Of a DNA stretch of 35,588 nucleotides, positions 13,524 to 34,619 are shown one piece after another (within the stretch, counting starts at the first letter, position 1; every line of letters begins with the position of its first letter). Both the position numbers and the translations under genes were made by a program. Source of the DNA: a virus. Taxonomy: Duplodnaviria; Caudoviricetes. The stretch is taken from IMG/VR virus record IMGVR_UViG_3300038679_000136, positions 1 to 35,588 of that record; one strand, 5' to 3'. Below the pieces are notes generated by a model. It saw only the letters and a program-made list of their open reading frames with translations. It ran no database searches and was not told where the DNA came from.

Positions 13524-14090
13524 ATGAACCAGAAACCCTCCCCCCTCGCGGCCCTGGCCGCGATCACCCCCGAGCAGGCGGACGAGCTCTTCGACCGCCT
13601 GCGCACCGCGCCGTACTACGCGGCCGTGGCGTGGGTGGCGGAGACGTGGGGGATGAGCGTCTCCATTTCGGGACTGCGCCGCTGGTGGCTGCGCGAGAGC
13701 TCGGCCCGGGCGAGGGCCGACCTGCGCGCCGCGATCCGCGCCTCCGAGCAGTTCGACAAGGACCTCGACGCCCGGGCGCTCGACCAGCGCGCGGCCCACG
13801 CGATGCGCGCCAAGTTCTGGCAGGCGGTGACCTCCGGCGACAAGAAGGCCACGCTCGACTTCGGCGCGGCGGTCCTGGACTACAACGCGGACGGCCGCGA
13901 CGACGAGAAGCTCCAGCGCGTGCTGGCCGCGGAGCGGGAACGCGACGCCGCCAAGGCCGAGGCGTCCGCGCTGCGGGCCCGCGTCTCCGAGCTGGAGGCC
14001 GCGCTGGCCGCGGCGGGCCGCGACTCCGCCGCGGACCCCAAGGCCGTCATGGCCGAGGTGGACCGCATCCTGGGGAGGAAGACGGCATGA
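13524..14090 (+). CDS. Terminase small subunit-like (Mu gp27/DUF3486-like)
   Basis: N-terminal HTH-like WVAETWGMSVSISGLRRW, helical, directly before TerL. Confidence 0.65.
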   Translation: MNQKPSPLAALAAITPEQADELFDRLRTAPYYAAVAWVAETWGMSVSISGLRRWWLRESSARARADLRAAIRASEQFDKDLDARALDQRAAHAMRAKFWQAVTSGDKKATLDFGAAVLDYNADGRDDEKLQRVLAAERERDAAKAEASALRARVSELEAALAAAGRDSAADPKAVMAEVDRILGRKTA

Positions 14091-15535: not shown

Positions 15536-17124
15536 GCGCCCCCGCCCACAACAACCGCATGCTCCGCAACGCCAACACCTGGCGGCAGCAGTACGACGCG
15601 CTCCGCTGGCTCGACGTGCCGCGCGCCGTGCGCCTCCTGGAGCAGGAGCGCCGCGGCATCCACGCCGAGACGCAGTACACCTACGACCTCGTGGACAGCG
15701 TGGACCCCGACATGCTGGCCCTCATCCAGCTCCGCCTCGCCGCGATCAAGCGGCTCAAGTGGCGCGTCGCCTGCGCGGCGGAGGACACCGCCGGGTTCGA
15801 CAAGGTCCTCGCCGACGAGCAGGAGGAGGCGCTCCGCGCGCTCTACGACCGCATGCGGAACCTCGTCGCCGCCACGGCCGACCTCGCGCTCGCCACCTTC
15901 CGCGGCTACTCGGTCCTGCAGATCCGGCGCGACTCCGCGGGCGACCCTGTCTCGATCTGCCCGCTCGACCGCTGGCTGTTCGCCAGGGACGGCATGCGCG
16001 GCGACTGGTGGTGGAACCCCACCGCGCAGACGCTCGCCGGCCGGTCCCTGCCCGAGGCCGACCGCCTCGGCGGACCCGAGCTGCCGCTCGCGGACTTCGT
16101 GCTGCGCGAGGTGCCGTTCGCCGTGGACCGCGTGGCGCTCCTGGCCAGCGTCCGCAGCTCGACCGTCGAGAAGGACTGGGACGCCTGGTGCGAGATGTAC
16201 GGGCTCCATCCCTCCATCGTCACCGAGCCGCCCAACGCCAAGCCGGAGGACCGCCCCTCCTACGACGCCGCCGCGCGCGCCTTCAGCGACGGGCAGGGCG
16301 GGACGCTCCCCAACGGCGCCGCCGTCGTCTTCCCCAACTCCGTCACGGTGGACGCCCCGTTCGAGAAGCGCGCGGAGTACCTCACGCGGAAGAAGGTGCT
16401 GGCCGGCACCAGCGGCATGCTGACGATGCTGGCCGAGTCCGGCTCCGGAACGCTCGCGGGCGGCGCGCACCAGGACACGTTCGACTCGCTGGCCGAGGCC
16501 GAGGCCGCGGAGATCTCCGAGCTGCTCCAGCGCTCGATCGACGCGCCTTTCCTCACCGCCCGCTTCGCCGGGCGCCCGGTCCTCGCCTGGTTCGAGCTGC
16601 AGCCCCACCGCAAGAAGGACCCCGACAAGGTGGCCGACCGCGTCGCCAAGGTAGCCGCGCACTACGACTTCGACGCCGACGAGCTGACCGAGGAGCTCGG
16701 CCTCACCGTCACGCCGAAGGCGGTTGTCCCCGGGGGCGCGGGCGTCCCGCCCGCTCCCTCCCCGTTGGGCCTGGCCTTCGCCAACGGCGCCACGCTGCGC
16801 GCCGCCGTCAACAGCCGCGCGACCGCGCCCGCTCCGGCGGACGTCCCGGATCCCGACGACTTGGAGGGCGCGGCGGTCGAAGCGCTGGCCGAGGCCCGGG
16901 CCGAGGGACTCGCGCCCGTCGTCGAGCGGCTCCTGGACGCGCTGTCCAAGACCGATCCCGAGTCGCTCCGCAAAAGCCTCGCCTCGCTGCTGGCCGACCT
17001 GCCCCGCCTCGCGGAAGCGGCCGGCGCCGGCGCTGAGGCGGACGCCGAGCTCGTGGAGCGCATCCTCTCCGACGCCGTCGGGGCCGGCCACGCCGACGCC
17101 GCCAAGAAGGGAGCCACGCCGTGA
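15532..17124 (+). CDS. Portal protein (Mu gp29/DUF935)
   Basis: ATFRGYSVLQI, DWDAWCEMYG and GSGTLAGGAHQD. Follows TerL with an ATGA overlap. Confidence 0.88.
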   Translation: MSAPAHNNRMLRNANTWRQQYDALRWLDVPRAVRLLEQERRGIHAETQYTYDLVDSVDPDMLALIQLRLAAIKRLKWRVACAAEDTAGFDKVLADEQEEALRALYDRMRNLVAATADLALATFRGYSVLQIRRDSAGDPVSICPLDRWLFARDGMRGDWWWNPTAQTLAGRSLPEADRLGGPELPLADFVLREVPFAVDRVALLASVRSSTVEKDWDAWCEMYGLHPSIVTEPPNAKPEDRPSYDAAARAFSDGQGGTLPNGAAVVFPNSVTVDAPFEKRAEYLTRKKVLAGTSGMLTMLAESGSGTLAGGAHQDTFDSLAEAEAAEISELLQRSIDAPFLTARFAGRPVLAWFELQPHRKKDPDKVADRVAKVAAHYDFDADELTEELGLTVTPKAVVPGGAGVPPAPSPLGLAFANGATLRAAVNSRATAPAPADVPDPDDLEGAAVEALAEARAEGLAPVVERLLDALSKTDPESLRKSLASLLADLPRLAEAAGAGAEADAELVERILSDAVGAGHADAAKKGATP

Positions 17125-18074
17125 GCGAAGCAATCCAACCCCCCTTCCGCGCCGTCGCCGTCCGCCAGGGCGAGTACCCCACCGTCCTCACGGACGACGC
17201 CGGCAAGGAACGCACCGTCGTGCAGGTGGTCGATGCCGAGGCCGTCGCCGCCATCCTCGCGGCCTACGCCGCCGATCCCCGGCCGCTGCTGGTCGACGGC
17301 GACCACAGGGCGGACAAGGGCGGATCCACCGAGGCCTACGCCTGGGCGTCGGAGCTGCGCGGGGAACAGGGCGGCATCTCCGTCCTGCTCGAACCCACGG
17401 ACATCGGCGCGCCCGCCATCGCCACCAAGCGCTACCGCTACCCGTCGCCCGTCTTCGAGCAGGCCGACCTGCAGTGGCTCGACGCCGCGCAGACCCGTGC
17501 CCGCCCGCTGCGGCTGGCCCGGCTGGGCCTGACCAACCTTCCCAACATGGATCTCCCCGCGCTGGTCAACAGCGCAGCCACGCGCGCCGGCCGGGCGCCG
17601 CAACCCACAACCCCCCAAGAAGGTACCCCCAGCATGGACTACAAAGCCAAGCTGCTCGCGGCGCTGGGCCTGCCGGCCGAAGCGACCGACGAGGAGATCG
17701 ACGCCAGGCTCGCCGAGGTGGAGGCCGCCAAGGCCGACGCCGACGCCGACGCCGCCGTCAACGCCGCCGGCATCCCCGACGAGGCCAAGCCCGACGCCAA
17801 AAAGGCCTGCCTTGCCGCCCCCGCGGCGACCAACGCCGTCCTCGGCGCCTTGAAGGCCGCCTGCAACGCCGTTGCAAGCCGGGCCGCCAAGCCCGCACCC
17901 AAGCAGCCGCAGCGCGTGCTGCTCAACTCCGACGGCCGCCAGCCCCGGCCCGGCGCCGCCGACACGGCCCGGCTGCGCCAGGCCGCGCTCAACGCCCACG
18001 CGGCCGCCAACCCCGGCCTGTCCCGCGACGCGGCCTACAACGCCGTCCGCGCCACCCACCCCGAGCTGTTCTAG
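17121..18074 (+). CDS. Prohead protease/scaffold (Mu gp32 I/Z-like); probable internal scaffold start at 17634
   Basis: LLVDGDH, AYAW, YRYPSPVF and GLTNLPN, then MDYKAKLLAALGLPAEATDEEI. Confidence 0.88.
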   Translation: MSEAIQPPFRAVAVRQGEYPTVLTDDAGKERTVVQVVDAEAVAAILAAYAADPRPLLVDGDHRADKGGSTEAYAWASELRGEQGGISVLLEPTDIGAPAIATKRYRYPSPVFEQADLQWLDAAQTRARPLRLARLGLTNLPNMDLPALVNSAATRAGRAPQPTTPQEGTPSMDYKAKLLAALGLPAEATDEEIDARLAEVEAAKADADADAAVNAAGIPDEAKPDAKKACLAAPAATNAVLGALKAACNAVASRAAKPAPKQPQRVLLNSDGRQPRPGAADTARLRQAALNAHAAANPGLSRDAAYNAVRATHPELF

Positions 18075-18090
18075 CCCCATCCGCTAGCGC

Positions 18091-18117
18091 AGTCCCGCAA
18101 TCCCGCAATCCCGCAAT
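18091..18117 (+). repeat. Octamer variant of family B repeat
   Basis: AGTCCCGC AATCCCGC AATCCCGC AAT, intergenic. Confidence 0.7.
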
Positions 18118-18128
18118 AGGAAGTTCCC

Positions 18129-18473
18129 ATGTCCAATCGCATCATCGCGGCCACCATGGCCGGAGACCTCGCGGCCGTCAAGGGCCGCTTCGTCAAGCTG
18201 ACGGCCGGCGCCGTCGTGCTCTGCACCGACAACCTCGACGTCGCCATCGGCGTCGTGGACCACGTCGTGCCCGGCACGCAGAACGTCGGCGTCGCCCTCA
18301 AGGGCGCGCAGACCGAGGTCCTCGTGGACGGCACCGTCAAGCGCCTCGCGCTCGGCACGATCGACACGAGCAACGACACCACCCAGTACGACGGCACCGC
18401 CGACACGCAGAAGCTCTGCCAGTTCCTGGCGGACGGCGCGGACGGCGAGTACGTCCCGGCCATCGTCCTCTAG
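18129..18473 (+). CDS. Capsid decoration/cement protein
   Basis: 114 aa, beta-rich, between scaffold and capsid genes. Confidence 0.65.
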   Translation: MSNRIIAATMAGDLAAVKGRFVKLTAGAVVLCTDNLDVAIGVVDHVVPGTQNVGVALKGAQTEVLVDGTVKRLALGTIDTSNDTTQYDGTADTQKLCQFLADGADGEYVPAIVL

Positions 18474-18521
18474 CCGCCCCGCGCGGCCCCACCGACAACA
18501 CCGCCAGAAAGGCACGCATCC

Positions 18522-19454
18522 ATGCCCGCAAACCCCAGCTTGGTTCTCAACGACGGCCTCACCCAGTACGCGCAGTTCATCGCGCCGGACTGGAAGAAGG
18601 TCATGCAGGAGGCGCTCGGTCTCGCCCCGGTCGTCCCGACCGGCGCGATGGCCGGCCGCTACGCGAAGTTCAACAACCGCCAGGCGTTCCTGGTCCCCGA
18701 CGCCCGCCGCGCAAGCGGCGGCGAGACGCAGACCGCGCAGTTCGCCGGCGAGATGGTGGACTTCATCCTCGACCCCAACGCGCTGCGCATCCCCATCGAC
18801 CAGGAGATCGAGGTGCCCCTCGCGGGCGAAACCTCCACGCTCCTGGAGCAGGCAAAAACGCGCACGCTGCTCTCGCAGAGCGGCAACGCGTTCGCCGTCT
18901 CGGTGTTCGACACGGTCCTCGCCGCCGTCGCCGCCAAGGCCGGCAAGGGCGCGTGGGGCGACGCCTCCAAGGACCCCCTCGCGGAGCTGGAGGAGGCGTT
19001 CGACGAGATCGAGTCCAAGACGGGCCTGACGCCCAACGTCATCTCGATCAGCAAGCCCATGTGGCGGCTCTTGAAGCAGCACCCCAAGACGCTCGCCCGC
19101 TTCCCCGGCAAGTCGGCCGCCATCACGGCGCAGCTCGTGGCCGAGGAAATCGGCGACGGCGACCTCGCGATCGAGATCGTGTCCGGGCGCGGCTTCCGCT
19201 CCGCCAACATCGGCACCAAGGCGGCGACGACCACGCCCTTCATGGGCAACAGCGTCCTGGTCCACTACCGGGACGCGATGCCGACGCAGTTCTCTCCGGG
19301 CTTCGCCGCCACGCTGGCCATGGACTCCAACATGCTGGAAGGCATCTACGAGTACATGTCCGACGACGGGACCACCAAGTTCCTGCGCACCAAGTGGCGC
19401 GTGAAGACCGTCGTCCAGTCCGCGCTGCTCTGCTACCGCATCGACCTGACCTAA
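18522..19454 (+). CDS. Major capsid protein
   Basis: 310 aa in capsid position. W.D...DPLAEL...I...TGLTPNVI.I....W..L..HP resembles lambda E-type capsids. Confidence 0.8.
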   Translation: MPANPSLVLNDGLTQYAQFIAPDWKKVMQEALGLAPVVPTGAMAGRYAKFNNRQAFLVPDARRASGGETQTAQFAGEMVDFILDPNALRIPIDQEIEVPLAGETSTLLEQAKTRTLLSQSGNAFAVSVFDTVLAAVAAKAGKGAWGDASKDPLAELEEAFDEIESKTGLTPNVISISKPMWRLLKQHPKTLARFPGKSAAITAQLVAEEIGDGDLAIEIVSGRGFRSANIGTKAATTTPFMGNSVLVHYRDAMPTQFSPGFAATLAMDSNMLEGIYEYMSDDGTTKFLRTKWRVKTVVQSALLCYRIDLT

Positions 19455-19536: not shown

Positions 19537-19965
19537 ATGAAGAAGTTCTTGCTCCGCATCCAGACGCCCGCCGTCGCCGTCGCCATCCTGGCGATCTTCG
19601 CCTGCGCGCCGTCCGCCACCGCCCAGTCCGTGCCCCAGCGCGAAGTGGTCGACGTGGCCGTCAACGCCACCACGACCTGGACGATCCCGCACTACGCCAA
19701 CGCGCGGATCCTCAGCGTCCAGCAGCTCAGCGCCGCGACCAACGGCGTCGCGATCACGGACGCCACGATCCAAGTCAAGCACCTGCTGATGGCCGGCACG
19801 AACACGCTGGCCACCAACACGCTGCTCGCCGCGGGGACCAACGCCGTCGTCTACGCGGGGTCCGCCCTGCCCGCCGCGTACGCCATCCCCGGCGACCAGG
19901 TCACCGTCAAGCTCTCCAACACGAACGCCGCCGGCAAGGTGGCCGTCGTCATCGGAGGCTATTAG
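19537..19965 (+). CDS. Signal-peptide-bearing beta-rich late protein
   Basis: MKK...AVAVAILAIFACAPSATA|Q, directly after the capsid gene. Confidence 0.7.
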   Translation: MKKFLLRIQTPAVAVAILAIFACAPSATAQSVPQREVVDVAVNATTTWTIPHYANARILSVQQLSAATNGVAITDATIQVKHLLMAGTNTLATNTLLAAGTNAVVYAGSALPAAYAIPGDQVTVKLSNTNAAGKVAVVIGGY

Positions 19966-19967
19966 GC

Positions 19968-20411
19968 ATGGCCTGGCGCGCGTTGACCGAGGCCGACATC
20001 CGCTCCGTGCTGTCCGACTCCGAGATGGCCGCGCTCTCGCGCGCCGCCGGTCCGGACGGCGCCTCGGAGCGGATCGCCGCCCAGGTCGAGGCCGTCGTCG
20101 GCACGGTCCGGGGGCATGTCGCGGCCAACCCGCGCAACGCCCTCGGCCCCGCCGGCACGGTCCCGGACACGCTGCGCCAGGCCGCCCTCGCCATCCTCGC
20201 GGTGGACATCCCCGCCCAGATGGCCGGCCTCAATCTCGACCCCAAGGGCGTGCGCAAGGACGCCAAGCGCGACGCGCTCGCGCTCTTGCGGTCGGTGGCC
20301 GACAACAAGTTCGACATCGGGGAAGGCGCGGCCTCGTCCGCGCCCACCCCCCCCACGGCCTACGCCAAGCCGCGGGTCTCCACCCGCGACCGCCTGAAGG
20401 GGGTGCTGTGA
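19968..20411 (+). CDS. Head-tail adaptor (Mu gp36/DUF1320-like)
   Basis: TVPDTLRQAALAI...DALALLRSVADNKFDI and synteny. Confidence 0.7.
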   Translation: MAWRALTEADIRSVLSDSEMAALSRAAGPDGASERIAAQVEAVVGTVRGHVAANPRNALGPAGTVPDTLRQAALAILAVDIPAQMAGLNLDPKGVRKDAKRDALALLRSVADNKFDIGEGAASSAPTPPTAYAKPRVSTRDRLKGVL

Positions 20412-20821
20412 TGGGCGCCCTGACGGACCTCCAGCGCGCCGCGGCGGCCATCCTGGTTCAGGACGAGCAGCTCTCCGCCCCCGGCATCGTCGTCGTTTGC
20501 GTGGACAAGGCGTCCGCGCTGGCCGAGGTGATCGCCGCGATGGCGGGCGCCGGCATCCTGATCGCCGTCGGTCCCCCCGCCGCGCCCACGCCCCCCTGCG
20601 CCTACGCCAAGCCGCGCGTCTCCACCCGCGACCGCCTGAAGGGGGTGCTGTGATGGGCGCCCTGACGGACCTCCAGCGCGCCGCGACCGCCCTTCTGCGG
20701 GCGGACGAGCTGCTCCGCAACCCCGGCGTCGCGATCCTCGCCGTGGACAAGGGCGACGCGCTGCTCGCCGCCCTGGAGGCCATGGGCGCGGCCGGCATCC
20801 TGATCGCGGTGGGTCCCCCCA
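20338..20821 (+). repeat. 242-bp imperfect tandem duplication across a gene junction
   Basis: Units about 20338-20579 and 20580-20821, with near-identical ends and a diverged, indel-free middle. Confidence 0.9.
20411..20653 (+). CDS. Chimeric 80-aa ORF created by the duplication
   Basis: N-terminus parallels 20653-21126 and C-terminus (AYAKPRVSTRDRLKGVL) equals that of the gp36-like gene. Confidence 0.55.
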   Translation: MGALTDLQRAAAAILVQDEQLSAPGIVVVCVDKASALAEVIAAMAGAGILIAVGPPAAPTPPCAYAKPRVSTRDRLKGVL

Positions 20822-21126
20822 GCGCCACGTTCCGGGGGGACAGCTCCGTCGGCCCCGTCGCGGACGGCGGAGTCCGCCTCGCCGTGCAGGTCAGCGAGCC
20901 GGCCGGATCCGGTCGCGACCAGGCGCTGCCTTCCGCGATCGACGTGGCCGAGCGCGTCGCCTGGCTGCTGCACAACGCCAACCACGAAGGCGAAGCGGAC
21001 GGACCCGCGCTCGCCGTCGACAGCGTCTCGCCCGTACCGGACGAAAGCGCCGTCGTGTACTCCGTCCTCTGCCGCGCCACCGTCGCCCTGACCGGAGACT
21101 TCTCCGAACCGGAACCGCAACCATGA
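20653..21126 (+). CDS. Tail terminator/neck protein (Mu gp37-like position)
   Basis: 157 aa between adaptor and tail tube, with a TGATG overlap. Confidence 0.6.
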   Translation: MGALTDLQRAATALLRADELLRNPGVAILAVDKGDALLAALEAMGAAGILIAVGPPSATFRGDSSVGPVADGGVRLAVQVSEPAGSGRDQALPSAIDVAERVAWLLHNANHEGEADGPALAVDSVSPVPDESAVVYSVLCRATVALTGDFSEPEPQP

Positions 21127-21239
21127 ACCACGACACTCCTTTGGCTATCGTCTTGGCCCCCGAATCCGCGCACGTCCTCGCCGCTCTCGCCCGCCGCTGG
21201 CGCGCTAGCCGCCGCCTCCAAATCCGCCGCGCAGCCTGA
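21123..21239 (+). CDS. 38-aa basic peptide (absent from the ORF track)
   Basis: ATGA overlap. MNHDTPLAIVLAPESAHVLAALARRWRASRRLQIRRAA. Confidence 0.35.
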   Translation: MNHDTPLAIVLAPESAHVLAALARRWRASRRLQIRRAA

Positions 21240-21240
21240 C

Positions 21241-21275
21241 TTCATCCCCAAATCAGCAATCCGCAATCATCGATC
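21241..21275 (+). repeat. Heptamer tandem repeat, family B (with one family A unit)
   Basis: TTCATCC CCA AATCAGC AATCCGC AATCATC GATC before the tail tube gene. Confidence 0.65.
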
Positions 21276-21287
21276 GGAGTAATCCCC

Positions 21288-22241
21288 ATGGCTCCTCCCC
21301 AACGATCCTCTTTAGTGCGCGGCCCCGGTGCCGTTCTTGTCGGCTCCGTCTGCGTGCACGACGCCGGCGGAATCGAGTCCGAGCTTCTGGTTGCCTCCGA
21401 AGAAGTCCAGTCGTCGCTGCACGGATCCGTCGAGCGGTTCATCAGCTCCCGATCCGGGACGACGACGCTCACCCCCACCGGCGAAATCAGCGCTGGCCTG
21501 GTATCGCTGCTGTGCCCGTGGCAGAGTCCTGACATCGGCGCATCTCTGTTCGGCGCGACCGACGTCGCCACGGTCATCCACAGCAAGGCCGGCGTCAAGT
21601 GCACATGGACGGCCACCGCCGTCGTCGGAGCCCCCGTGCTCCGCATGTCGGCGGCCCGAACCCATTTCAGCGGTCCACTCCAACTGCGGCATATGATCGG
21701 CTCCGGTTTGGACCCCCACGCAGCCAATGCGTTGGTCAAAGTGGAGTCCGCCGCCTATGTCGCCGCCACCTACCCGTTCGACGCGCGCACGATCAAGGCC
21801 GGCCCTGTCGTCGCCACGCACAACAGCGTCACGATCTCCACACAGGACGGCTGGGCTGTGGCCCCCTCCGCGCAAATCACCCCGGAATCTGTCGACGAAG
21901 CGGGCGAATACGACCTCGTGCTGCAGGGCGCCGCGTGCGTCGCCACCTGCACCCCGATGGGCATGTCCGAGGCCGCGCTCAAGACGCTGGTCAACCCCGA
22001 GCGGGCGCAGGGCGCCACGGTCCGCAGCGGGCACAACCTCGTCCTCACCCAGGCCGCGTCCGGACTCGTCGTCACCCTCTACGACGTCTCCGTCCTCGCC
22101 GGTCCCCTGCGCTGGGGCTCCGTCTCGATCCGCACCGGCCAGCTTGCCTTCGCGGCCAACCGCGTCCTGACGGCCGGCGTCCCCGGCGCCCTCTACAACG
22201 TCGCCTGGACCGATCCCGACACCCCGCCCGAGGAGCCGTGA
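21288..22241 (+). CDS. Probable major tail tube protein
   Basis: 317 aa, Thr/Val/Gly beta-rich, after the neck genes. Called by position only. Confidence 0.55.
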   Translation: MAPPQRSSLVRGPGAVLVGSVCVHDAGGIESELLVASEEVQSSLHGSVERFISSRSGTTTLTPTGEISAGLVSLLCPWQSPDIGASLFGATDVATVIHSKAGVKCTWTATAVVGAPVLRMSAARTHFSGPLQLRHMIGSGLDPHAANALVKVESAAYVAATYPFDARTIKAGPVVATHNSVTISTQDGWAVAPSAQITPESVDEAGEYDLVLQGAACVATCTPMGMSEAALKTLVNPERAQGATVRSGHNLVLTQAASGLVVTLYDVSVLAGPLRWGSVSIRTGQLAFAANRVLTAGVPGALYNVAWTDPDTPPEEP

Positions 22242-22252
22242 CCGTCGGCCGC

Positions 22253-22281
22253 AATCCGCAATCCGCGATCTGCAATCTAAA
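22253..22281 (+). repeat. Heptamer tandem repeat, family B
   Basis: AATCCGC AATCCGC GATCTGC AATCTAA abutting ATG 22282. Confidence 0.8.
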
Positions 22282-22674
22282 ATGACGATCACCTGGCCAA
22301 CCTCCGCGACGACCATCTGCCACGGCGCCACGCGCACCGTGGGGCAGGCGGCCGGCCCCGCGTCGCTCGACATCGACGTGGCGCCCGGCCTCCGCCGCCG
22401 CGCGTACCTGGAAGCGCCCGGCGTCGCGTACGAGCATGCCGGCAACGACGAGTGCGTCGTCGCCTTCCGCGTCCGCGTCGCATGCGCCAACGCCAGCGCC
22501 GCCGCGGCGCTCGCCGTCTCCGTCGCCGCGGACACCGCCCGCGTCGGCGCCCTCGGCATCGGCGGGCTCACCCTCGCCGACGCCGGCCTGCGCCGCTGCC
22601 GCCCCGTCGTCCAGGGGCTGGCCGTGCTGATCGACTACCAGTTCGCCGGCTACGCCACCCCCACCCCCGTCTAG
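22282..22674 (+). CDS. Hypothetical tail protein (possibly distal-tail/tube fold)
   Basis: 130 aa with a mixed beta-alpha-beta pattern, in tail position. Confidence 0.5.
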   Translation: MTITWPTSATTICHGATRTVGQAAGPASLDIDVAPGLRRRAYLEAPGVAYEHAGNDECVVAFRVRVACANASAAAALAVSVAADTARVGALGIGGLTLADAGLRRCRPVVQGLAVLIDYQFAGYATPTPV

Positions 22675-22685
22675 GAGGATGCCCC

Positions 22686-23975
22686 ATGCGCCGCGCAGCA
22701 ACCCTCGTCGCCGCCCTTATCCTTTTGCCTTCGTCCTTTTGCCTTTCTTCCCCTCCCGCGTTGCGATGGACGGCGGACGTGGCGCGCCCCGCCCCCGCCG
22801 AGTGGACCCTGCTGCGCGGCGAGACCCGCCTGCTGCAGCCCACCGTGCAAGAGGGCCGCACGCCCCTTGCATGGCCGTCCAACACCGTCGCCACGCTCTA
22901 CTGGCAGACCAACGGGATGGCCGCCGCCTGGTGGACGGTCCCCGCCTCGCTCGGCGCGTCCGCCGGCCAGCTCGGCGCCGTGTGGTCCGCAACCAACGAC
23001 GTCGGCGCGTCGGCCTACGCGTTCTTCCTCGGCGCGGAGACTCCGGACGGCCGCACCTACAGCGCCCACGGCACCATCCGCTACCGCCACGGCCCCGGCG
23101 CGACGCCCAACGCGCTGCCGCTGCCCGTGGCCCGGCTGGACTTCGCCGCGCTGTCCGTGACCAACGCGCCGTGGGCCACGCCGGCCGCCCTGCATTCGGC
23201 CAGCAACGCGCTTGCGGAGGCCCTGCAGGACGCCGTCGCGCCCCTGTCCACGACGCAGGACCTGGCAGAGGCCATCGCGGCGATTCCCGAGGGCGTCACT
23301 CCTGGGCAGGTCGCCGCCGCGCTGACCAATGCCCACGACTACGCGGACGCCGCGGCGTCCAACGCGGTCGCGGCGGCGGCATCCGACCGACACGCATGGT
23401 CCGCGACCGGCGCCGTCATGCGCGCGACGGAGGCCGCCAGGCTGCGCGACGGCGACGGCGGCGTGGAGTGGGACGGGGGGACGAACTGGTGGACCGTCGC
23501 GATGACGGACGAGACGGTCGCCGTCGTGACGGCCGCCGACATCGAACCGGGGACGTCGGGGCCGTCGGAGGGCACCACGTTCTCCGCGTGGGAGTGGGAC
23601 GATCCGAGCGCCACGTGGACGAGCACGGCCGGGACCTCGCCGTGGTACATGCAGTTGGCCGGATCGCCGGACGATGTGTTGCTGGCCACTAATCCGGTGG
23701 TGCAGACCGCCGAAATACTGCCCGATCCGCCAGGCTATTTCGTCTCGGCGGGATCGTTGCCTATCGTGCTGGAAGACATGAACGGCAGCGCGTCGACGAT
23801 CTCGGTGCAGTGGAGGCAGGTGGCGGTGCGCGCGCCTCTGGCAACTATGCCCTACGTCGACGCGCGAGTCGCCGCCGCCTCGTGGCCCAGCATGGACGTC
23901 GCCACCAACCTGACGTGGACCACGACGATCAGCAACGGCCACTACATCGCCGTGGGAACCCCGGTGTCTCCATGA
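22686..23975 (+). CDS. Signal-peptide-bearing fibre/baseplate-like protein (429 aa)
   Basis: AGGAGG RBS and MRRAATLVAALILLPSSFCLS leader. LLRGETRLL recalls BppU-type N-termini, followed by a helical stalk and LATMPYVD fibre-like motif. Confidence 0.6.
   Translation: MRRAATLVAALILLPSSFCLSSPPALRWTADVARPAPAEWTLLRGETRLLQPTVQEGRTPLAWPSNTVATLYWQTNGMAAAWWTVPASLGASAGQLGAVWSATNDVGASAYAFFLGAETPDGRTYSAHGTIRYRHGPGATPNALPLPVARLDFAALSVTNAPWATPAALHSASNALAEALQDAVAPLSTTQDLAEAIAAIPEGVTPGQVAAALTNAHDYADAAASNAVAAAASDRHAWSATGAVMRATEAARLRDGDGGVEWDGGTNWWTVAMTDETVAVVTAADIEPGTSGPSEGTTFSAWEWDDPSATWTSTAGTSPWYMQLAGSPDDVLLATNPVVQTAEILPDPPGYFVSAGSLPIVLEDMNGSASTISVQWRQVAVRAPLATMPYVDARVAAASWPSMDVATNLTWTTTISNGHYIAVGTPVSP
22716..22750 (+). 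repeat. Heptamer tandem repeat, family A, inside a signal-peptide coding region
   Basis: CTTATCC TTTTGCC TTCGTCC TTTTGCC TTTCTTC encodes LILLPSSFCLSS. Confidence 0.8.
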
Positions 23976-24712
23976 AGTACTTTCTCCCCCTCGCCATCCT
24001 CGCGGCGCTGTCCGCGCCCTGCCGCGCGCAGGTCGTCATGGATTTCCTGACCGTCGACCAGAACGGCGTAATCTCCCCGGCCGGGGCGGTCTCGACCATC
24101 GACTCGCTCGCGTCGGTGGCCGCGTCCAACGTGGCCACCGCCGTGCAGCTGGAGATCGTGGCGGCGACGACGGCGTCCGTCGCCGCGATGGTGTCCAACG
24201 TGACCGCCACGGTCGACGCGCTGGAGGGCGTGATGTACTGGGACGGATTCGTCCTGGACTACGGCGTCTCCGAGAGCGTGGCGGACACCAACTACGTTTC
24301 CCGCATCCTGCGGTTCGACCCCGCCGTCAGCAACGACGCGGGGTTCGTCTACTCCGACGTGTACTCCTATTTCTCGACGGTGCCGGAGGATCTGCCCGTC
24401 ATCCGGTTCGCCTCGTCGCCGGACCGCGACGGGACATGGGACGAGGCCGCGCTGGCGGGGATCGCCGAGGACGAGGTGCTCGTCGGCGAAACCCTCTTCG
24501 AGTGCTTCCGCATGACGGTGGCGCACCCGCTCGCCTACACGTCGGCGTTCTTCCGCGTGGTGTCCGCGACCGTCTACAGCGACGCCGGCGCATTCCTGCC
24601 CGTGGAGAACGGCATCTCGCCGGGGGGGCGCGTCCCGCTGACCGGGACGTTCGCGGCCGGCACCAACGGCTTCACCTACGTGGGGGGGCTGCGTGTCAAC
24701 CCTGCCGAATAG
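23972..24712 (+). CDS. Signal-peptide-bearing late protein (246 aa)
   Basis: MKYFLPLAILAALSAPCRA|Q with an ATGA overlap. Confidence 0.75.
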   Translation: MKYFLPLAILAALSAPCRAQVVMDFLTVDQNGVISPAGAVSTIDSLASVAASNVATAVQLEIVAATTASVAAMVSNVTATVDALEGVMYWDGFVLDYGVSESVADTNYVSRILRFDPAVSNDAGFVYSDVYSYFSTVPEDLPVIRFASSPDRDGTWDEAALAGIAEDEVLVGETLFECFRMTVAHPLAYTSAFFRVVSATVYSDAGAFLPVENGISPGGRVPLTGTFAAGTNGFTYVGGLRVNPAE

Positions 24713-25613
24713 CGTCGCGGGCGCGGCCCTCGCGGCCCTGGTCCCCCTGGCGGTCCTGCTGATCGCGGCCGCCAAGTGCGGCGCGCGGCGCAGGGCGCTG
24801 CGCGGCGCGACCCACTGGCAGCGGGCGCTGGCGCTGGCCGCGTTCGCGGTCGTCGCCTCGTACGGCGGGGACAAGGGCGGCCCCGCGGTCCCCCCGCGCG
24901 CGGTGCAGTTGCTGACGGTGCTCCGGGACGGCACGCTCAAGGACCGGTCGGGCCGCGTCGCGAGCGGCGCGGCGGAGGCCGCGGTCGCGGCGTTCGGGGA
25001 ACAGACCGCGGCGCTGGCCGCCGCCGCCGCGGAGGTCGCCGGGCGGGCGCAGGCGGACTGCGACGCGCTCGTGGCCCGCATGGCGACCAACGACTACTCG
25101 GTCGCCTACGTGCGGATGGAGCTGCCGCGCGGCACGTCCGTCGTAAGCAACCACAACATCATGGTCACCTGCGAGCGCACCGAACGCACGGCGAGCGACA
25201 CGGTCGACCGGCTCGTGTGGTTCAGCGCCCCGCCGACCACCAACGTCGTGGTCCACGCGCGCTACCGCACGTCCGGCGGGCACGTCGGCACGCTGGCCCC
25301 GTCGACGAACTTCTGGCCGGCCACCGAGACGGTCGGAGGGGTGGAGTGCGTGCGCTACCGCTACGAGTTGCCGGCGGACGTCCGCGCGTACGCCCTGGTC
25401 CCCTCCTACGAGGTGGCGTTCGGCGGCCCGGAGCCGGGGCAGTACGTGTCCGTTCCGGAGAGCGGCGTCACGGTGCGGGTCGGGGCGGCCGAGCACCTGC
25501 CGTTCACGGGATGGGACGACTACGGGGACGGAGTTCGCGTACGAAGCGTCGGCGGCGTCGCCGTCGCCATCGAAATCGCCGGGACAACCTACGAGGGAGT
25601 GAATCCGCTATGA
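24693..25613 (+). CDS. Membrane-anchored late protein (two N-terminal hydrophobic segments ending in YGGDK)
   Basis: Two hydrophobic helices separated by a basic loop, then a helical stalk and beta-rich domain. Confidence 0.7.
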   Translation: MSTLPNSVAGAALAALVPLAVLLIAAAKCGARRRALRGATHWQRALALAAFAVVASYGGDKGGPAVPPRAVQLLTVLRDGTLKDRSGRVASGAAEAAVAAFGEQTAALAAAAAEVAGRAQADCDALVARMATNDYSVAYVRMELPRGTSVVSNHNIMVTCERTERTASDTVDRLVWFSAPPTTNVVVHARYRTSGGHVGTLAPSTNFWPATETVGGVECVRYRYELPADVRAYALVPSYEVAFGGPEPGQYVSVPESGVTVRVGAAEHLPFTGWDDYGDGVRVRSVGGVAVAIEIAGTTYEGVNPL

Positions 25614-26065
25614 GGACGATGATCGCAGCCCTGTTGGCCGTCGCGGCGCTGTCCGCACCCTGCCGCGCCGACAAGCCGGCCGAGCCCGGCAGCCAGCCCG
25701 GCAAGGCGGAGATGAAGCGGTCGCCGAAGGTGGCGTCGCGCAGGATCGCGGGCGAGACCGTGCAGACGGTCTACGCGGACGGGACGACGGAAACGAAGCC
25801 GATCAAGCGCGTCGCGATGCCCGCCGGGGCGCACGCGGCCGTGCGCATGCTGGTCGCCCGCAAGGCTCTCTGCGACGCCGTGTTCGCGGCCGCCGATCTC
25901 GGCGCGGACGCGGGGCCGGACGCGCAGGCCGCCGCCTTGGGGGCCGCGGCCAAACAGGCCGGCAAAAAGGGCTCGGACTTGAACGACATCCTCAAGGGCG
26001 TCGGACTCCTCGCGGCGGGTGCCGCGGCGGGCGCCGCCGCGAACAACAAACCGAAAGCAGGCTAA
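25610..26065 (+). CDS. Signal-peptide-bearing protein with C-terminal Gly/Ala hydrophobic segment
   Basis: MRTMIAALLAVAALSAPCRA|D ... GVGLLAAGAAAGAAA. Confidence 0.7.
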   Translation: MRTMIAALLAVAALSAPCRADKPAEPGSQPGKAEMKRSPKVASRRIAGETVQTVYADGTTETKPIKRVAMPAGAHAAVRMLVARKALCDAVFAAADLGADAGPDAQAAALGAAAKQAGKKGSDLNDILKGVGLLAAGAAAGAAANNKPKAG

Positions 26066-26067
26066 CC

Positions 26068-26730
26068 ATGCCACGCAAGCACAACATCCACGCGGCGCTG
26101 TCCGCGCTCTGCATCGCCGCCGTCGTCGCCATGACCGGTTGCTCCACACTCACGCGCCTCGGCATCGGCGAGGACGCGACGGTCGCCGCCGTGCGGCTTG
26201 CGCTCACGCGCCAGGGCCTTGCCGGCGCCGTGACCGACGCGCAGGTCCGAGAGATCGCGAACGTCGTGAAGGCGAACGAGCGGCTGCAGCAGATCGGAGA
26301 GGAGGTCGCCGCGGACGCCCGCGTCCAGGCGAAGATCGACGAGTTGGTCGCCAAATACATGGAGGACGGCGCCGTCGTCGACCCCGCCGCCACCAACGAA
26401 CCGATCCACGAGCTGGCCCTCACGGTCACGTCGCTGACGGCCGACACGGTCAAGTTCGACTGGGCTCCGAAAGTCTACGCGTGGCCGGTCAAGGTCGTCG
26501 GCGCCGAGTGCGACGCGGTCCTCGAAATGAGGCTCGCGAACGGCCAGGGCGGCAAGGTGGACTGGATCCGCAAAGGCGGACAGTCGAGCAAGGGCCTGGA
26601 AAACATCCACGACGGCTACGGCGTGTGGAAGACGCTCGGCGTTCCCGGATCGGGCGAGCCGGTGACGTTCCGATGGGTGTCCGTCGACGGCAAGCGGCGC
26701 AGCAACGACGCCGCGGCGGTGTGGCCGTGA
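26068..26730 (+). CDS. Lipoprotein
   Basis: Basic n-region, hydrophobic h-region and lipobox-like MTG|C. Confidence 0.75.
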   Translation: MPRKHNIHAALSALCIAAVVAMTGCSTLTRLGIGEDATVAAVRLALTRQGLAGAVTDAQVREIANVVKANERLQQIGEEVAADARVQAKIDELVAKYMEDGAVVDPAATNEPIHELALTVTSLTADTVKFDWAPKVYAWPVKVVGAECDAVLEMRLANGQGGKVDWIRKGGQSSKGLENIHDGYGVWKTLGVPGSGEPVTFRWVSVDGKRRSNDAAAVWP

Positions 26731-26936
26731 TCTCGCCCAGGGCAACAGACCGCGCGGCATCCGCCGCGATGGCCGCCGCGGTCGCGGCCTTGGTTTCCTT
26801 GGCGATGCAGTCGTGCTCCGGCTGCATCGGCGTCGTCGAGTGGGGCGACCCGGGCGACGGCGTCCCCGTCGAGTTTGCCGGGCCCGCCGCCGCGACCGAG
26901 CTCGAAGCCGCCCTGTACCCGGAGGCCACGCCATGA
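26727..26936 (+). CDS. Small putative lipoprotein/membrane peptide (69 aa)
   Basis: GTGA and ATGA overlaps. Hydrophobic stretch then QSCSGC. Confidence 0.45.
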   Translation: MISPRATDRAASAAMAAAVAALVSLAMQSCSGCIGVVEWGDPGDGVPVEFAGPAAATELEAALYPEATP

Positions 26937-27460
26937 CTCCCGCCGCATCCGCCGCGCTGCTCGCCCTCGCCCGCAAGATCGACGCCGCGCCGCTCGCCAC
27001 GCTGTACCGGCTGACCCGCAACTACACGCTGCCCCCGTCGCCGCGCCTGCTGGAGATCACCGGCGGCCGCGACGTGTCCGTGACCGGCGACGCCGATCCC
27101 GGGCTGCGCATCCATCCCGACGGGAGCATGACGGTCTACGCCCCGTTCGCATGGGACGGCTGCAGCCCGCGCGCGGCGGTCCGCTTCATGGGCCGCGTCG
27201 TGATGACGGTCGGCACGCCCAACGGCCCGCGGCTGCCCGGCGGCATCCGCGCCGCCACGCGGGGCGGGATGCTCCACGACCGCGTCTGCTCGCTGGCCGA
27301 GAAGATCGCCGGGGTCCTCGGCATCCAGCCGTGGCGGGTCTACGCCGCGGCCGACCTGCTGATGCTCGACGTGGTCTCCGAGGATTGGTCGCCCCGCGCG
27401 GGGCGGTTCTACTACTGGTTCGTGTCCCGCTTCGGCGACGCCTACCGCTCCTTCGGCTGA
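26933..27460 (+). CDS. DUF1353-like protein
   Basis: FAWDGCS, LHD, AD and YYWFVSRFG motifs. Confidence 0.7.
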   Translation: MTPAASAALLALARKIDAAPLATLYRLTRNYTLPPSPRLLEITGGRDVSVTGDADPGLRIHPDGSMTVYAPFAWDGCSPRAAVRFMGRVVMTVGTPNGPRLPGGIRAATRGGMLHDRVCSLAEKIAGVLGIQPWRVYAAADLLMLDVVSEDWSPRAGRFYYWFVSRFGDAYRSFG

Positions 27461-27505: not shown

Positions 27506-28738
27506 ATGCCCTACGACCTGCCACGCGTCCCGCTCCCGACCGGTGCCTCCAGCTCCGACCTCGCGCGGCTGCCCTCGGAGCTCCGCCGCCAGGCGCTCTT
27601 CTCCGCGCGGCTCAACCGGCTGGAGCCCGTCGCGGAGATCGGCGCGTCCATCAAGGGCATCCTCGACGGCCAGCTGTCCGACTCCGAGGCGCGGACCAAC
27701 ATCCGCTCCGTCCTCGCCGCGACCGGCTACCGCCCCCCGGCAGGCCGGGAGGGCGGCCTGCTCGACCACACCAGCCGCACGCGCCTCGACCTGATCCTGA
27801 CGCAGAACGTCCGCGCCGCGCGCGGCTACGGCAAGTGGGCCGCGGACATGGACCCCGACCTGCTCGACGTCTGGCCCGCCCAGGAGCTGGTCCGCGTGAT
27901 GGCCCGCAAGGCCCCGCGCGGGGACTGGCAGACGCGGTGGGAGGAGGCGGGCGGGACGTTGGTCGAGGGGCGCATGGCGGCCCTCAAGACGAGCCCCGTG
28001 TGGGCGAGCCTCAGCCGCTTCGGCCAGCCCTTCCCCCCGTACGACTACGGCAGCGGCATGGGCGTCCGCGACGTCCGCCGCGACGAGGCCGAGCGCCTTG
28101 GGCTCATCGGCCCCGACGACACGCTCACCCCCGAGCCCGTCCCGTTCCCGGACATGGCCGAGGCCCGCATGCCGGACCTCGCCGGCATGGACGCGCTGCA
28201 AGCCTCCATCCTCAAGGTGTTCGGCGAGGGCGCGAGCTTCGACGGCGGCTCGCTGACGCTGGCTCCGAAGCTCGGCGTCCCCGCCACGGGCGACGCGGCG
28301 TCTCTGCGGCTCGGCCCGCTGGGCGCCGCGACCGTCAAGCCGGCGCCGCCGCTCGTCGGCCCGAAGGAGGCGCGCGGCCTGGTCTCCAGCGGCCAGGCCA
28401 ACGCGAAGGCGCCGGACGGCACCGTGGTCCGGTTCTCCGGCGACGTCGAGGCCCACTGGCGCCGCAAGAAATACACCGACGCCGCGGTCGACGCGCGCCT
28501 CGCCCACATCCGCCACGCGTTCGCCGCCGTCCGCGAACCCCAGGAGGTCTGGGAACGCGAGGGATCCAGGTGGTACCTGCGGGAGTTCGAGCCCGGAGCG
28601 GACGGCAGGCGGCTGCGCATCCTCGTGCAGACCCGCGTCGACGGCGAGGCGTTGACGTGGATTCCCGTCAACCAGAAGCCCGGCTACTTCGAGCGGAAAA
28701 GAACGGGCACCCTCCTAACGAAGGAGGGCGCCCTATGA
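27506..28738 (+). CDS. MuF (gp30)-like minor head protein with C-terminal PBECR-like nuclease domain
   Basis: RLDLILTQNVRAARGYG and PFPPYDYGSGM are MuF-like. The C-terminus AHW...R...I...VREPQEVW...YLREF...LTW...YFERKRTG is PBECR-like. Confidence 0.75.
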   Translation: MPYDLPRVPLPTGASSSDLARLPSELRRQALFSARLNRLEPVAEIGASIKGILDGQLSDSEARTNIRSVLAATGYRPPAGREGGLLDHTSRTRLDLILTQNVRAARGYGKWAADMDPDLLDVWPAQELVRVMARKAPRGDWQTRWEEAGGTLVEGRMAALKTSPVWASLSRFGQPFPPYDYGSGMGVRDVRRDEAERLGLIGPDDTLTPEPVPFPDMAEARMPDLAGMDALQASILKVFGEGASFDGGSLTLAPKLGVPATGDAASLRLGPLGAATVKPAPPLVGPKEARGLVSSGQANAKAPDGTVVRFSGDVEAHWRRKKYTDAAVDARLAHIRHAFAAVREPQEVWEREGSRWYLREFEPGADGRRLRILVQTRVDGEALTWIPVNQKPGYFERKRTGTLLTKEGAL

Positions 28739-28841
28739 GCCTGGAAGAACGGACATCCCCGTCCCAGGCGCCCGGAGCCGCGCGCATCGGCGGATGCGCC
28801 CCGCGCGGTCGATTGGCGCATATCCTACCAAAGGCGCGGCC

Positions 28842-29452
28842 ATGGACGCAATGAACATCCAGGTCAACGTCGACGCCCGCGCGGCCGTCGCGGTCCTGCG
28901 GGACGCCCGCGGCGTCATGCAGGCGCGCGAGGCCGCACACAAGGTCGCGGCCAGCGCGGTCGGCCGCCAGGTGCGCGGCTGGTTCCTCGACCGCAACGCG
29001 CGGTCGCAGACGTCCAACTACTGGAGCCGCGCCGCCGAGGCGACGACGGCGGAGTGGGACGCGGCCGGCGGCGCGGTCGTCGTGCGGCATCCCGGCGTCG
29101 GCTGGCACCTCCGGGGCGGCACGATCGTCCCCTCCGGCCGCGTCAGCCCGGCGACGGGCAAGCCCGTGACGACGCTCGCGATCCCGCTCAAGGGCCGCTC
29201 CGGCGAGGGCATCTGGCCACGCGAGCGCTTCCAGGACGACGCGGAAAAACCATTCGTCTGGCGCCGCAGCGGCAAGGCGTTCCTCGCCGTCCGCGAGGGC
29301 AACGCGCTGCGGCTCCTGTACCTGCTGGTCAAGTCCGTCTCCAAGGGCGAGGACCCGTCCGTCCTGCCGCCCGGCCCGGAGATGGCGGCCGAGGCCGCCC
29401 AAGCCGTCCTGCTCCTGGTCCGTCGCACGCTGCGTCAAAGAATGAAGGCCAC

Positions 29453-29456
<4 letters not shown>
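28842..29456 (+). CDS. Virion morphogenesis protein (Mu gpG/gp31-like)
   Basis: Basic protein with HLRGGTIVP and LAIP, directly after MuF. Confidence 0.6.
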
Positions 29457-30870
<1,414 letters not shown>

Positions 30871-30874
<4 letters not shown>

Positions 30875-32793
30875 GCGTGGCCTGGCAAGTCAAGATAGGC
30901 TCCGGTTCGCTTGCGGCCGCCGCGACCCTCGGCATCGAGGACGTCGCCCTGGACTATGCGTCCCGGTCCGCCGACTCGTGCGTGCTCACCGGATCCGCCG
31001 CCGTGCTCGACCCCACCTTCGGCGACGTTGTCGAAGTGTGGTGGGGCACGCCGGCCGTGCGCCGGTTCGTGGGCTCGATCGGTCCTTCCACGCGGATCGG
31101 CGCAGCCGACAGGCAGGTCCTCTGCCACGGCCTGTGGCACGACATGGAGCGCGTCGTCTACTGCCAGCGCTGGCGCATCTCGGTCGACGGCGCACTCCAG
31201 TGGGTCTACAGCTCCCGCGCCATCCTCGGGCAGGCCGAGACCGGAGACTGGCCCCGCCGCCAGAACGTGGGGCAGACCGTCGCCGCCGTCGTCGCGTACG
31301 CAGCCCTGCGCGGCGTCGCGATCCAGCTCGGGGCCTGCTCCGTCGACATGGTGCTTCCGCTCGACGAGGTGCGCGACGTCACATGCTCCGCCGCGATCGA
31401 CCGCGTGCTGCGCTTCGCCCCGTCGCTTTGCTCGTGGTTCGATTACTCGACTACCCCGCCGACGCTGCACTTTGGTTTGGGCTCCGCCGTCGGCACGGTG
31501 CCCGTCGAGGACCGCCAGATCTCGCTGCGCCACGACCTCGTCGTCCCCGGCGTCCGCCTCGAGGTCGAGACGACGACGGACACTCCGTCCGGATCTCTGC
31601 GCGTCCTGACGTTCCAGGAGGCTGGCGACGCCGACGCGCTCGGCGCCGTCTGGGCTACGGTGCCGTTGTCCGGGGGCCAGACGTCCCGGACCAAGTCAGA
31701 GCTCGACGTCGTCACCGAGCCCGTGCCCGACCCGCTCGACGACGCCGCATGGTGGATCGCGCGCCATCCCCGCCTGCGCGGCATCGCCGAAGTGGATTTG
31801 TCGTTCATTCAGACCACGCGAAGCTTTGTCGATCCGGCGGACTACCCCCGAATCAGCCTCACGCCGCTGGCCGACCTGGAGGGGCATTCGCTGCGCGGCC
31901 GCGTGGAGACGTTCCGGGCAACCGTGGACATCGTCAAGCGCGACGAGACGGGCAACGTCCTTACCCAGGAACACGCCGTCCATCTCGACCTCGACCTCGT
32001 CACCACCGACGCCAACACGCGCAACTACAGCCGGGTGGACAGCGTCGACTTCGAGGAGGCGGAGACGATCCCCGCCGACTTCGCCGCGCAGTTGTATGCT
32101 CGCTGGTCGGTCCTGTACGCCGAGGGCTCGTCCGTGTGGCCGCTGGCGGCCGCGTGGCCGCACCCGGGCGCGCTGATGCACGAGACGCCCCTGCAGCGCG
32201 TTTCCGTCTCGGCCAAGGCCATGACGGCATCGGGCACCTACGGTCCGCCCCAGCATCTCAGCGCCTCCGACCTTGCCGCGTTTCTCAACCGCTTTCGCCA
32301 GCGCGTCGCGTCCCGGCGCGCGCAAGCCCGCGAAGACGGCAAGCAGCCCGCCGACTCCGTGCGCGACGCCAACGCCGTCGCGCCCGTCAAGGCCGGCGGC
32401 CACGCCGACGGAGCCCCGACCAGGACGCGCATGGTGCAGGGCCTCAGCAGCGCCGCCAAGACCATCGACCTCGACCCCGCGCTGCTCGACGACGGCAAGA
32501 CCGCCAAGCCGCGCGTCATCTCTTTCCTCGACGCCGAAGGCAACCCGGCGCATGCGACGTTTATTGCCACCGCCGACGAGGCCGGCGAAGCCGAGGACCC
32601 GTCGGCCCCCGTCCCCGGCGACCCCGACTATCCTCCCCCCTGCGGACACCCCGGCAACGGCGGCGGCGGCGGCGGCGGTTCGGAAGACTTGGCACACCCC
32701 GGCGACGAGCCTGGCGGTGGCCCCGGCGTGACAGACACCGACCACCCCGGCGACGAGCCCAGCCCGCCCTCCAGCGGCGACGCCTGCGACTAA
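30871..32793 (+). CDS. Tail-tip/hub-like protein (640 aa)
   Basis: Follows the tape measure. VEVW...RRFVGSI and AIDRVLRF...WFDY...TLHF resemble hub proteins. Low-complexity C-terminus. Confidence 0.6.
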
Positions 32794-32805
32794 GGAGCGA
32801 CCCCC

Positions 32806-34223: not shown

Positions 34224-34619
34224 ATGCCTAGTCTTACACTGAATGTGTCTGCGGTTCATGAGGCGGCAGGCGGGAGCCTGGCGCTCGCGACGGGCAATCT
34301 GGTCGTCGCGGATTTGCTCGAGTCCTCGGTGAGGGCCAATCTCGAGTTTGACACTCCGGAAACGCCCAAGGCCATACCCTCCGATGCCATTGGCGACCCC
34401 GACATGCTGGTCGTCTGGCATTCGGCTGGCTCGGGCGGGATTGAGTTGGGATACATGGTGGACGCCGCTTTCGTGTCGTCCGGCCAAACCGTGCGCCCTG
34501 GTCGGTGCCTGATCGTGGACCTCACGGGATTTACTGGGGAGCCGTACGCGCAGATGGCCGCCGACGGCTCCGGAGCCACCATCAGCTGTCTGCTTCTCCG
34601 CAAACCGACGCCACTGTAG
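34224..34619 (+). CDS. Hypothetical protein, last prophage gene
   Basis: GGGAGG RBS, 131 aa. Confidence 0.6.
   Translation: MPSLTLNVSAVHEAAGGSLALATGNLVVADLLESSVRANLEFDTPETPKAIPSDAIGDPDMLVVWHSAGSGGIELGYMVDAAFVSSGQTVRPGRCLIVDLTGFTGEPYAQMAADGSGATISCLLLRKPTPL

Follow-up and report, generated by a model that had tools for sequence, protein, structure and literature searches.

Assembly of tailed phages is taken to be wholly cytoplasmic, and the known BppU-type proteins of baseplates and necks are made in the cytoplasm. In the filamentous and membrane-containing phages M13, PRD1 and PM2, proteins of the virion cross or enter the host membrane ahead of assembly, and in T4 and lambda it is well established that fibres join completed virions late and spontaneously. 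Exported proteins also occur among temperate-phage late genes, namely lambda Lom and Bor and Escherichia coli Eib, which we take to be outer-membrane proteins or lipoproteins that lack a virion anchor fold. Here we describe a 35,588-nucleotide stretch of DNA (IMG/VR record IMGVR_UViG_3300038679_000136, positions 1 to 35,588; hereafter the window) that holds a Mu-like prophage, probably of a Kiritimatiellia host, in which seven late genes, named below by their first positions, begin with hydrophobic segments. Four of them (19537, 22686, 23972 and 24693) encode proteins rich in Asn directly preceded by Ser or Thr (S/T-N). With a probability of roughly 0.55, these four would be outer parts of the virion that leave the cytoplasm by Sec, are likely modified by the host machinery for surface proteins and dock at lysis. 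Predicted signals and a host-shared bias, both on predicted virion-part folds, therefore suggest that the particles are likely finished with parts matured outside the cytoplasm.

Predicted export signals and the Ser/Thr-Asn bias

A sequence-only reading of the window had assigned export or membrane signals to the seven genes. All seven open reading frames (ORFs) indeed start at the proposed positions with hydrophobic segments, but not all gave a signal call. Using a heuristic built on hydrophobicity, an AxA motif and a lipobox, in place of SignalP, we obtained Sec/signal peptidase I-like calls for 19537, 23972 and 25610 and a lipoprotein-like call for 26068. The N-terminus of 22686 was hydrophobic with unclear cleavage, and no call was made for 24693, in which one N-terminal membrane segment was scored and a second was seen by eye, or for 26727, the weakest of the seven. 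Six of the genes are consecutive and mostly overlapping, as had been noted, with overlaps at 4/5 of their junctions.

Because these calls are heuristic, with 0–3 false calls per cytoplasmic family (families of 4–51 members), conservation across relatives is the stronger evidence for the signals. Across Kiritimatiellia phages, both the signal-like leaders and the dipeptide bias are conserved. Among unique, non-truncated relatives of 22686 (three truncated rows were dropped), 67/72 have a hydrophobic leader directly preceding the domain. Of the 149 new clusters listed for the family of 23972 and 24693, 104 were called signal-bearing and a further 38 had an N-terminal hydrophobic segment (142/149), and close relatives of 23972 (n = 24) have hydrophobic leaders in all but two N-terminal fragments. 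Asn followed Ser or Thr in 776/1907 cases in the same 149 clusters (observed/expected ratio, O/E, 2.70) and in 477/1032 and 139/280 cases in two other homologue sets, the three sets spanning O/E 2.7–3.2.

In the window itself, a recount reproduced the earlier numbers: 6/8 for 19537, 11/13 for 22686, 5/8 for 23972 and 4/7 for 24693, that is 26/36, with 0/12 in terminase and 1/10 in the major capsid protein. From each protein's own Ser and Thr content only 5.7 would be expected (O/E 4.5, binomial p 9e-14), and the maximum in 20,000 shuffles was 15, which rules out S/T composition as the cause. Cytoplasmic late proteins (n = 16) gave 9/103 (O/E 0.71); in homologous loci, core structural families gave O/E 0.6–1.6, whereas the two fibre families reached 2.58 and 3.32. 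The excess is restricted to position −1 of Asn and occurs across unrelated folds. The motif is a property of these four genes and does not extend to 25610 (0/3), 26068 (2/7) and 26727 (0/0), together 2/10 (p 0.22). The set of seven divides into four motif-rich, structural-like genes and three that encode motif-poor envelope proteins.

In fusion proteins, the bias is limited to the part after the signal. An internal signal-like segment was found in three proteins, namely P0069, a fusion of Gp36, the internal signal and a BppU-type domain, and two fibres of genomes G392 and G089; S/T-N was 2/16 before the segment versus 20/38 after it (p 0.007). In one clade of the 22686 family, both the signal and the bias have been lost. 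The signal-less members in genomes G158, G224 and G118 have S/T-N counts of 1/11, 1/14 and 4/25 and read Thr-Asp where 58/68 signal-bearing rows read Thr-Asn (10 rows were unmatched by the pattern). They form one clade among signal-bearing rows in a quick tree, and a single loss event is therefore suggested. Judged by sequence, this clade is an ordinary tail fibre; its members lie after gp36 and contain repeats of collagen or phage-tail type, and the G158 protein matches PHROG tail fibres. A fourth signal-less row (locus L229) keeps the Asn and resembles a tube fusion or a fragment. Signal-less proteins of 156–615 amino acids from G392, G089, G231 and G313 were not supported as homologues of the 22686 N-domain, since hhalign scored them within the null.

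The bias in host surface proteins

The sequence-only reading took S/T-N for a host periplasmic modification signal. In 400-kb genome samples, ordinary signal-bearing host proteins showed O/E of 0.60 (25 proteins, G001) and 0.87 (42 proteins, G237), and signal-bearing proteins of a Desulfobacterota-titled control (n = 26) showed 0.56. These values rule out a general periplasmic signal; the enriched proteins are large surface proteins. Most of the enriched host proteins, which are of large surface type, end in a common C-terminal domain, with 25 matches in G237. In 45 proteins selected by this domain from five genomes (partial ORFs), O/E outside the domain was 1.42, 1.81, 2.16, 1.17 (not significant) and 2.73. 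Thr-Asn is the commonest dipeptide in these domain-selected proteins and in both phage families. The bias is common to phage and host surface proteins.

Peptidase C25 served as a family-matched control, with the longest low-Arg frame at each locus taken as the ORF. C25 proteins had O/E 1.85 in the Kiritimatiellia class (30 loci) versus 0.84 (18) and 0.64 (29) in two other phyla. Since C25 proteins show the bias in that class and not in the two other phyla, a generic property of large surface folds is ruled out. The S/T-N bias is a lineage-specific property of Kiritimatiellia surface proteins. In the G224 host, whose prophage has neither signal nor motif, five surface-like proteins gave O/E 0.66. 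The hosts of the signal-less clade may lack the C-terminal domain, a weak conclusion, as the profile gave 0, 0 and 2 matches in them and one G224 protein ends in a similar-looking segment.

Canonical N-glycosylation is not supported: N-x-S/T has O/E 0.7–1.1 in the host protein classes, only 4 such sequons occur among the 36 Asn of the four motif-rich proteins, and STT3 exceeded the cut-off in 6/61 class genomes, G237 not among them. The host N-x-S/T and STT3 figures speak for a reading in which the proteins are exported and S/T-N either is a sorting cue for a secretion route specific to the lineage or reflects structure or composition, such as turns or helix caps. This reading also draws on the modest host enrichment (1.2–2.7) and on certain Thr-Asn sites that are invariant family positions, including T106-N107 and T231-N232 of 23972 in 25 sequences. 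We nevertheless consider it somewhat unlikely, because the C25 fold is without bias in two other phyla, the excess lies only at −1 across unrelated folds, and Thr-Asp appears once the signal is lost.

The host C-terminal domain has 80–90 residues, is found at the end of large surface proteins, dozens in each Kiritimatiellia genome (G237 L165–L189, G001, G003, G005 and G396 L311–L340) and has no consistent Pfam match; by analogy with the C-terminal domain (CTD) of type IX secretion system (T9SS) cargo, it is a candidate secretion or anchoring signal. Peptidase C25 (gingipain/PorU-like), a possible sortase-like partner of the domain, was found in 56/101 Kiritimatiellia class-sample genomes with up to 12 matches each.

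Predicted virion fibres and competing readings

The gene at 22686..23975 (+) encodes a signal-bearing protein with a BppU-type N-domain, a helical stalk, a variable middle and a conserved C-terminal hairpin motif. In an AF2 model the N-domain had pLDDT mostly >90, and its fold is predicted to be that of a BppU-type virion fibre anchor. The five leading VIA matches (Z 11.6 to 6v8i, 11.1 to 4v96, 11.0 to 9m8o, 10.8 to 3uh8 and 10.1 to 9c39; rmsd 2.7–7.1, 107–144 residues aligned) were the 80alpha baseplate, TP901-1 BppU (twice), the NF5 baseplate and the Sf14 neck, and the best non-phage chain reached Z 8.9. Foldseek agreed, giving phage baseplate and neck fibre anchors at E 2e-6 to 1e-4, so the earlier suggestion of a fibre-like protein held up in the fold comparison. 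Helices at residues 145–196 are predicted after the anchor in the monomer model (pLDDT 48–74). Relatives carry variable ends, as in receptor-binding fibres, including LRR_5 (2/42), GDSL and CBM5/12. In the loci inspected they always lie amid late structural genes, after tube, gp36 or tail tip, and the context is Mu-like wherever head genes are visible. The 22686 profile matched 15/401 phylum-sample genomes, all already in the class sample.

Three further observations concern fibres and capsids of these phages. The short C-terminal hairpin motif (window 23870–23975) is common to exported fibres across head types (~25 relatives) and may act as a cap for trimerisation or docking. An 880-amino-acid, signal-bearing, extremely Cys/His-rich repeat protein, which would suit periplasmic disulfide or metal loading, is encoded at L119:13189–15831 (G089), within the fibre region of a siphovirus-like prophage. 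L113:6375–7574 (G380) encodes a major capsid protein (SU10_MCP) with a CBM5/12 carbohydrate-binding module inserted.

The adjoining 23972 (23972..24712, +) is a signal-bearing, short fibre-like protein whose AF2 model (pLDDT 71) shows a hairpin, a 45-residue helix, a beta-sandwich and a C-terminal beta motif. Its paralogue 24693 (24693..25613, +) has an N-terminal membrane anchor; iterative profile searches from either protein gather both, and alignment agrees. The family comprises 292 clusters, its 23972 profile matched 12/401 class genomes, and its members are encoded in the late regions of phages of Mu-like, HK97-like and podovirus-like type; one carries a LamG domain.

The small, putatively beta-sandwich protein 19537 (19537..19965, +), signal-bearing and S/T-N-rich, is encoded between the major capsid protein and the head-tail adaptor. 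A signal-bearing small protein occurs directly before gp36 in 14/38 loci (the window and one near-duplicate pair included), and these proteins have S/T-N in 66/88 cases versus 16.6 expected. The Atlas model of 19537, of low confidence (pLDDT 0.52), gave TM 0.75 to a mostly viral cluster of 141-amino-acid proteins, and Pfam gave no consistent match for 18 family members. The recurrence after the capsid gene fits the earlier idea of an exported protein in a decoration position; with the fold taken from this low-confidence model, 19537 is a candidate exported capsid decoration or spike protein.

The three motif-poor genes are better read as anchor and lysis parts than as exported fibres, because in L199 the 26068 C-domain occurs as a fusion with an S8 protease, and because holin-like, DUF1353, peptidase and lipoprotein genes follow the cassette in several phages. 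The signal-bearing 25610 (25610..26065, +), a candidate anchor or chaperone with a hydrophobic, basic Gly/Ala tail at its C-terminus, usually follows the paralogue pair. The predicted lipoprotein 26068 (26068..26730, +; lipobox call) probably belongs to a lysis or envelope module, and the small hydrophobic Cys-bearing 26727, with a homologue in L100, shares a probable lysis region (26727..27460, +) with a DUF1353-like gene of phrog_1158, which also contains the DUF1353 protein of G313. Spanin profiles matched neither 26068 (lipobox) nor 24693 (anchor), both of which have large beta domains. Sequence searches of the seven proteins against Pfam, PHROG, NCBIfam and PDB gave nothing useful, apart from one weak PHROG of unknown function for 25610. 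An S8 subtilase (L199:9480–10664) and a papain-like C1 peptidase (L115:15721–16428) in lysis regions of related phages hint at a proteinaceous envelope layer as the target of lysis.

We propose the following order of events. Capsid and tail would be built in the cytoplasm, from head proteins without signals, whereas the BppU-anchored fibre 22686, the two short fibre-like paralogues and the small spike 19537 would be exported by Sec and cleaved. Their Asn, or the preceding Thr or Ser, would then be modified, most likely glycosylated by a non-STT3 enzyme. The membrane-anchored 24693 and 25610 may retain the fibres within the envelope up to the moment when lysis of the holin type brings the compartments together, at which point the exported parts would dock on finished particles; 26068 and 26727 may belong to lysis. 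A bolder form extends this scheme to Kiritimatiellia tailed phages of several head types: assembly would be split across the inner membrane, T/S-N would act as sequon for a novel bacterial system of non-STT3 protein glycosylation or surface sorting, and exported fibres and spikes would receive the T/S-N surface modification of the host, be parked in the envelope by membrane-anchored paralogues and be clipped on at exit. We regard this extension as tentative, with odds slightly below even.

Several results weigh against virion docking of modified fibres. None of 42 aligned 22686 members matched the Pfam BppU family at E<=0.05, and 22686 is therefore filed as BppU-like and not as a family member; the BppU fold is Ig-like and open to redeployment on the cell surface. 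Fold searches for 23972 gave no clear match, which does not imply a new fold, and 24693, being membrane-anchored, would fit an envelope complex, as would the holin-like, DUF1353, peptidase and lipoprotein genes after the cassette. The control without signals amounts to one clade, and a single contig of 1.4 kb is the source of P0069. On the host side, the non-significant O/E of 1.17 belongs to G396, and G201 has no match to the C-terminal domain though its phage retains signal and motif. With a cytoplasmic tail-tip protein (32806) also encoded in the window, the exported fibres may be accessory.

Redeployment of the fibre genes as a surface appendage of the lysogen or infected cell (an adhesin or a receptor shield), never on virions and comparable to lambda Lom and Bor or the Eib proteins, is improbable in our estimate. 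It would account for the bias in common with host surface proteins, the membrane anchors on 24693 and possibly 25610, and the adhesin-type variable domains. The phage beta-sandwiches also bear a weak likeness to the host C-terminal domain (hhalign E 7e-5 to 1e-3; local scores 26.5–32.8, where 18 other phage families reached at most 18.0 and 60 shuffles at most 14.0), at a tool probability of 1–7% and with the phage domain not strictly terminal. The look-alike is present in 23972 and 24693, window 22686 is without it, and the 23972 beta-sandwich profile matched 0/1070 host proteins. However, the cassette genes are overlap-coupled within the late operon and have ordinary third-position GC content (GC3 0.89–0.97, like their neighbours). 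No promoter-like site was found (0 sigma-70-like sites), in a scan of little power because only 0.6 were expected. The virion anchor fold is retained, the gene adjoins gp36, tube or tail tip, one relative is fused to Gp36, and the signal-less relatives read as tail fibres.

The least probable alternative, already raised by the sequence-only reading, is an envelope-spanning release or docking complex, spanin-like or tethering heads and tails for exit, with 24693 in the inner membrane, 23972 and 22686 in the periplasm and 26068 as the lipoprotein: it suits the three motif-poor genes better, the genes downstream of the cassette and the S8 fusion fit it, fusions with an internal signal would tether Gp36 or an adaptor to the membrane, and the window ORFs scanned included no known endolysin, but for the four motif-rich proteins we rate it below virion fibres, as hypervariable carbohydrate-binding ends on a BppU anchor suit receptor binding and not membrane fusion, 19537 lies among head genes, and 22686 relatives are frequently without paralogue pair or lipoprotein.

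Prophage layout and comparison with known systems

The window is a Mu-like prophage flanked by host DNA, with genes for a transposition ATPase, Mu portal, protease and Gp36 (phrog_296, PF06074, PF10123 and PF07030). The left flank carries a PurH-type IMP cyclohydrolase gene (108..1361, −; PF01808, E 2e-61), whose top genome match, at 79% identity, is a Victivallales-titled record; Kiritimatiellae-titled records match at 73–76%, above most Desulfobacterota-titled ones. Since cassette relatives are also present in the class of a Kiritimatiellae-titled genome, Kiritimatiellia is the probable host. A MuB-type ATPase (phrog_296, E 2e-46) and a putative transposase A, called from its position and a 53% homologue in prophage G237 with no Pfam match, lie at 2719..5698 (−). 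The head genes at 14087..19454 (+; terminase, Mu portal, Mu protease, small head protein and major capsid) have no signals and S/T-N at background. Region 19968..22674 (+) encodes the Gp36 head-tail adaptor (PF07030), two probable neck or terminator paralogues, a probable tail tube and a 130-amino-acid conserved beta protein, families followed in related phages and all classed as cytoplasmic. The last of these (22282 family, possibly Dit-like) had no informative PDB or PHROG match, and these comparisons gave no assignment as Dit. Downstream, 27506..34200 (+) encodes MuF-like, gpG-like, tape measure, hub and 464-amino-acid cytoplasmic tail-tip proteins, labelled by position and related phages, with S/T-N O/E of ~1 or lower.

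Other features of the window include two tandem paralogues at 20411–21126 with the same starting sequence and identical 18-mers upstream; the first (80 amino acids) ends like gp36, suggesting local duplication or an assembly artefact. The right flank (34256–35553, −) carries an AbiEii-type nucleotidyltransferase (PF08843, E 2e-5) with a small partner upstream, likely a type IV toxin-antitoxin. Another signal-bearing protein (11580–12233, +; S/T-N 1/5) lies between a repressor-like ORF and the late operon, and G237 has a similar small exported gene at the matching position.

A lineage-wide module of signal-bearing fibres would reveal a second assembly compartment for tailed phages, and an export route would explain phage uptake of host surface domains whose folding or modification requires the envelope. 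The T/S-N bias and the C-terminal domain expose a host feature that marks Kiritimatiellia surface proteins, and cultured Kiritimatiellia make this host half directly testable. The parts have known folds; neither signal-bearing phage fibres or an export route for tailed phages, nor the T/S-N bias and C-terminal domain of these hosts, were found described in the open-access literature searched (titles and abstract openings). The accessible part of PMC6920513 contains neither "signal peptide" nor "tail". What this analysis adds is the link of the motif to host proteins, the control matched by family, the clade with Asn changed to Asp, the fusions with internal signals and the protein encoded after the capsid gene.

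The predicted Ig-like anchor, helix, variable distal part and late position of 22686 resemble BppU/ORF48 of TP901-1 (4v96, 3uh8), the 80alpha and NF5 baseplates, the Sf14 and Bas63 necks (9c39, 9mt4) and lactococcal neck passage structures. Identity to these BppU-type proteins is ~10%; unlike them, 22686 is without a match in Pfam, begins with a conserved signal-like leader and is rich in T/S-N. A multi-gene module with a fibre anchor, conserved across head types, likewise separates this locus from Lom, Bor and Eib. Among Bacteroidota, the O-glycosylation motif is D-(S/T)-x. The cargo CTD of T9SS, as far as the accessible sources go, is similar in that a phylum-level short motif and a C-terminal beta-sandwich mark surface proteins; the Kiritimatiellia motif and lineage differ, and their C-terminal domain is without a consistent Pfam match. 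Glycosylation of virions is known from mycobacteriophages. In the accessible part of PMC13445384, mycobacterial MepM provides host-dependent methylation of a tail protein, a case comparable to the modification proposed for the window phage in that a host enzyme acts on a virion protein at a short motif. Going by the accessible text, the MepM and mycobacteriophage glycosylation cases seem to have no signal-bearing structural proteins, unlike the window phage. Unlike M13, PRD1 and PM2, finally, the window phage is tailed, with portal, terminase and HK97-type capsid genes that carry no signals.

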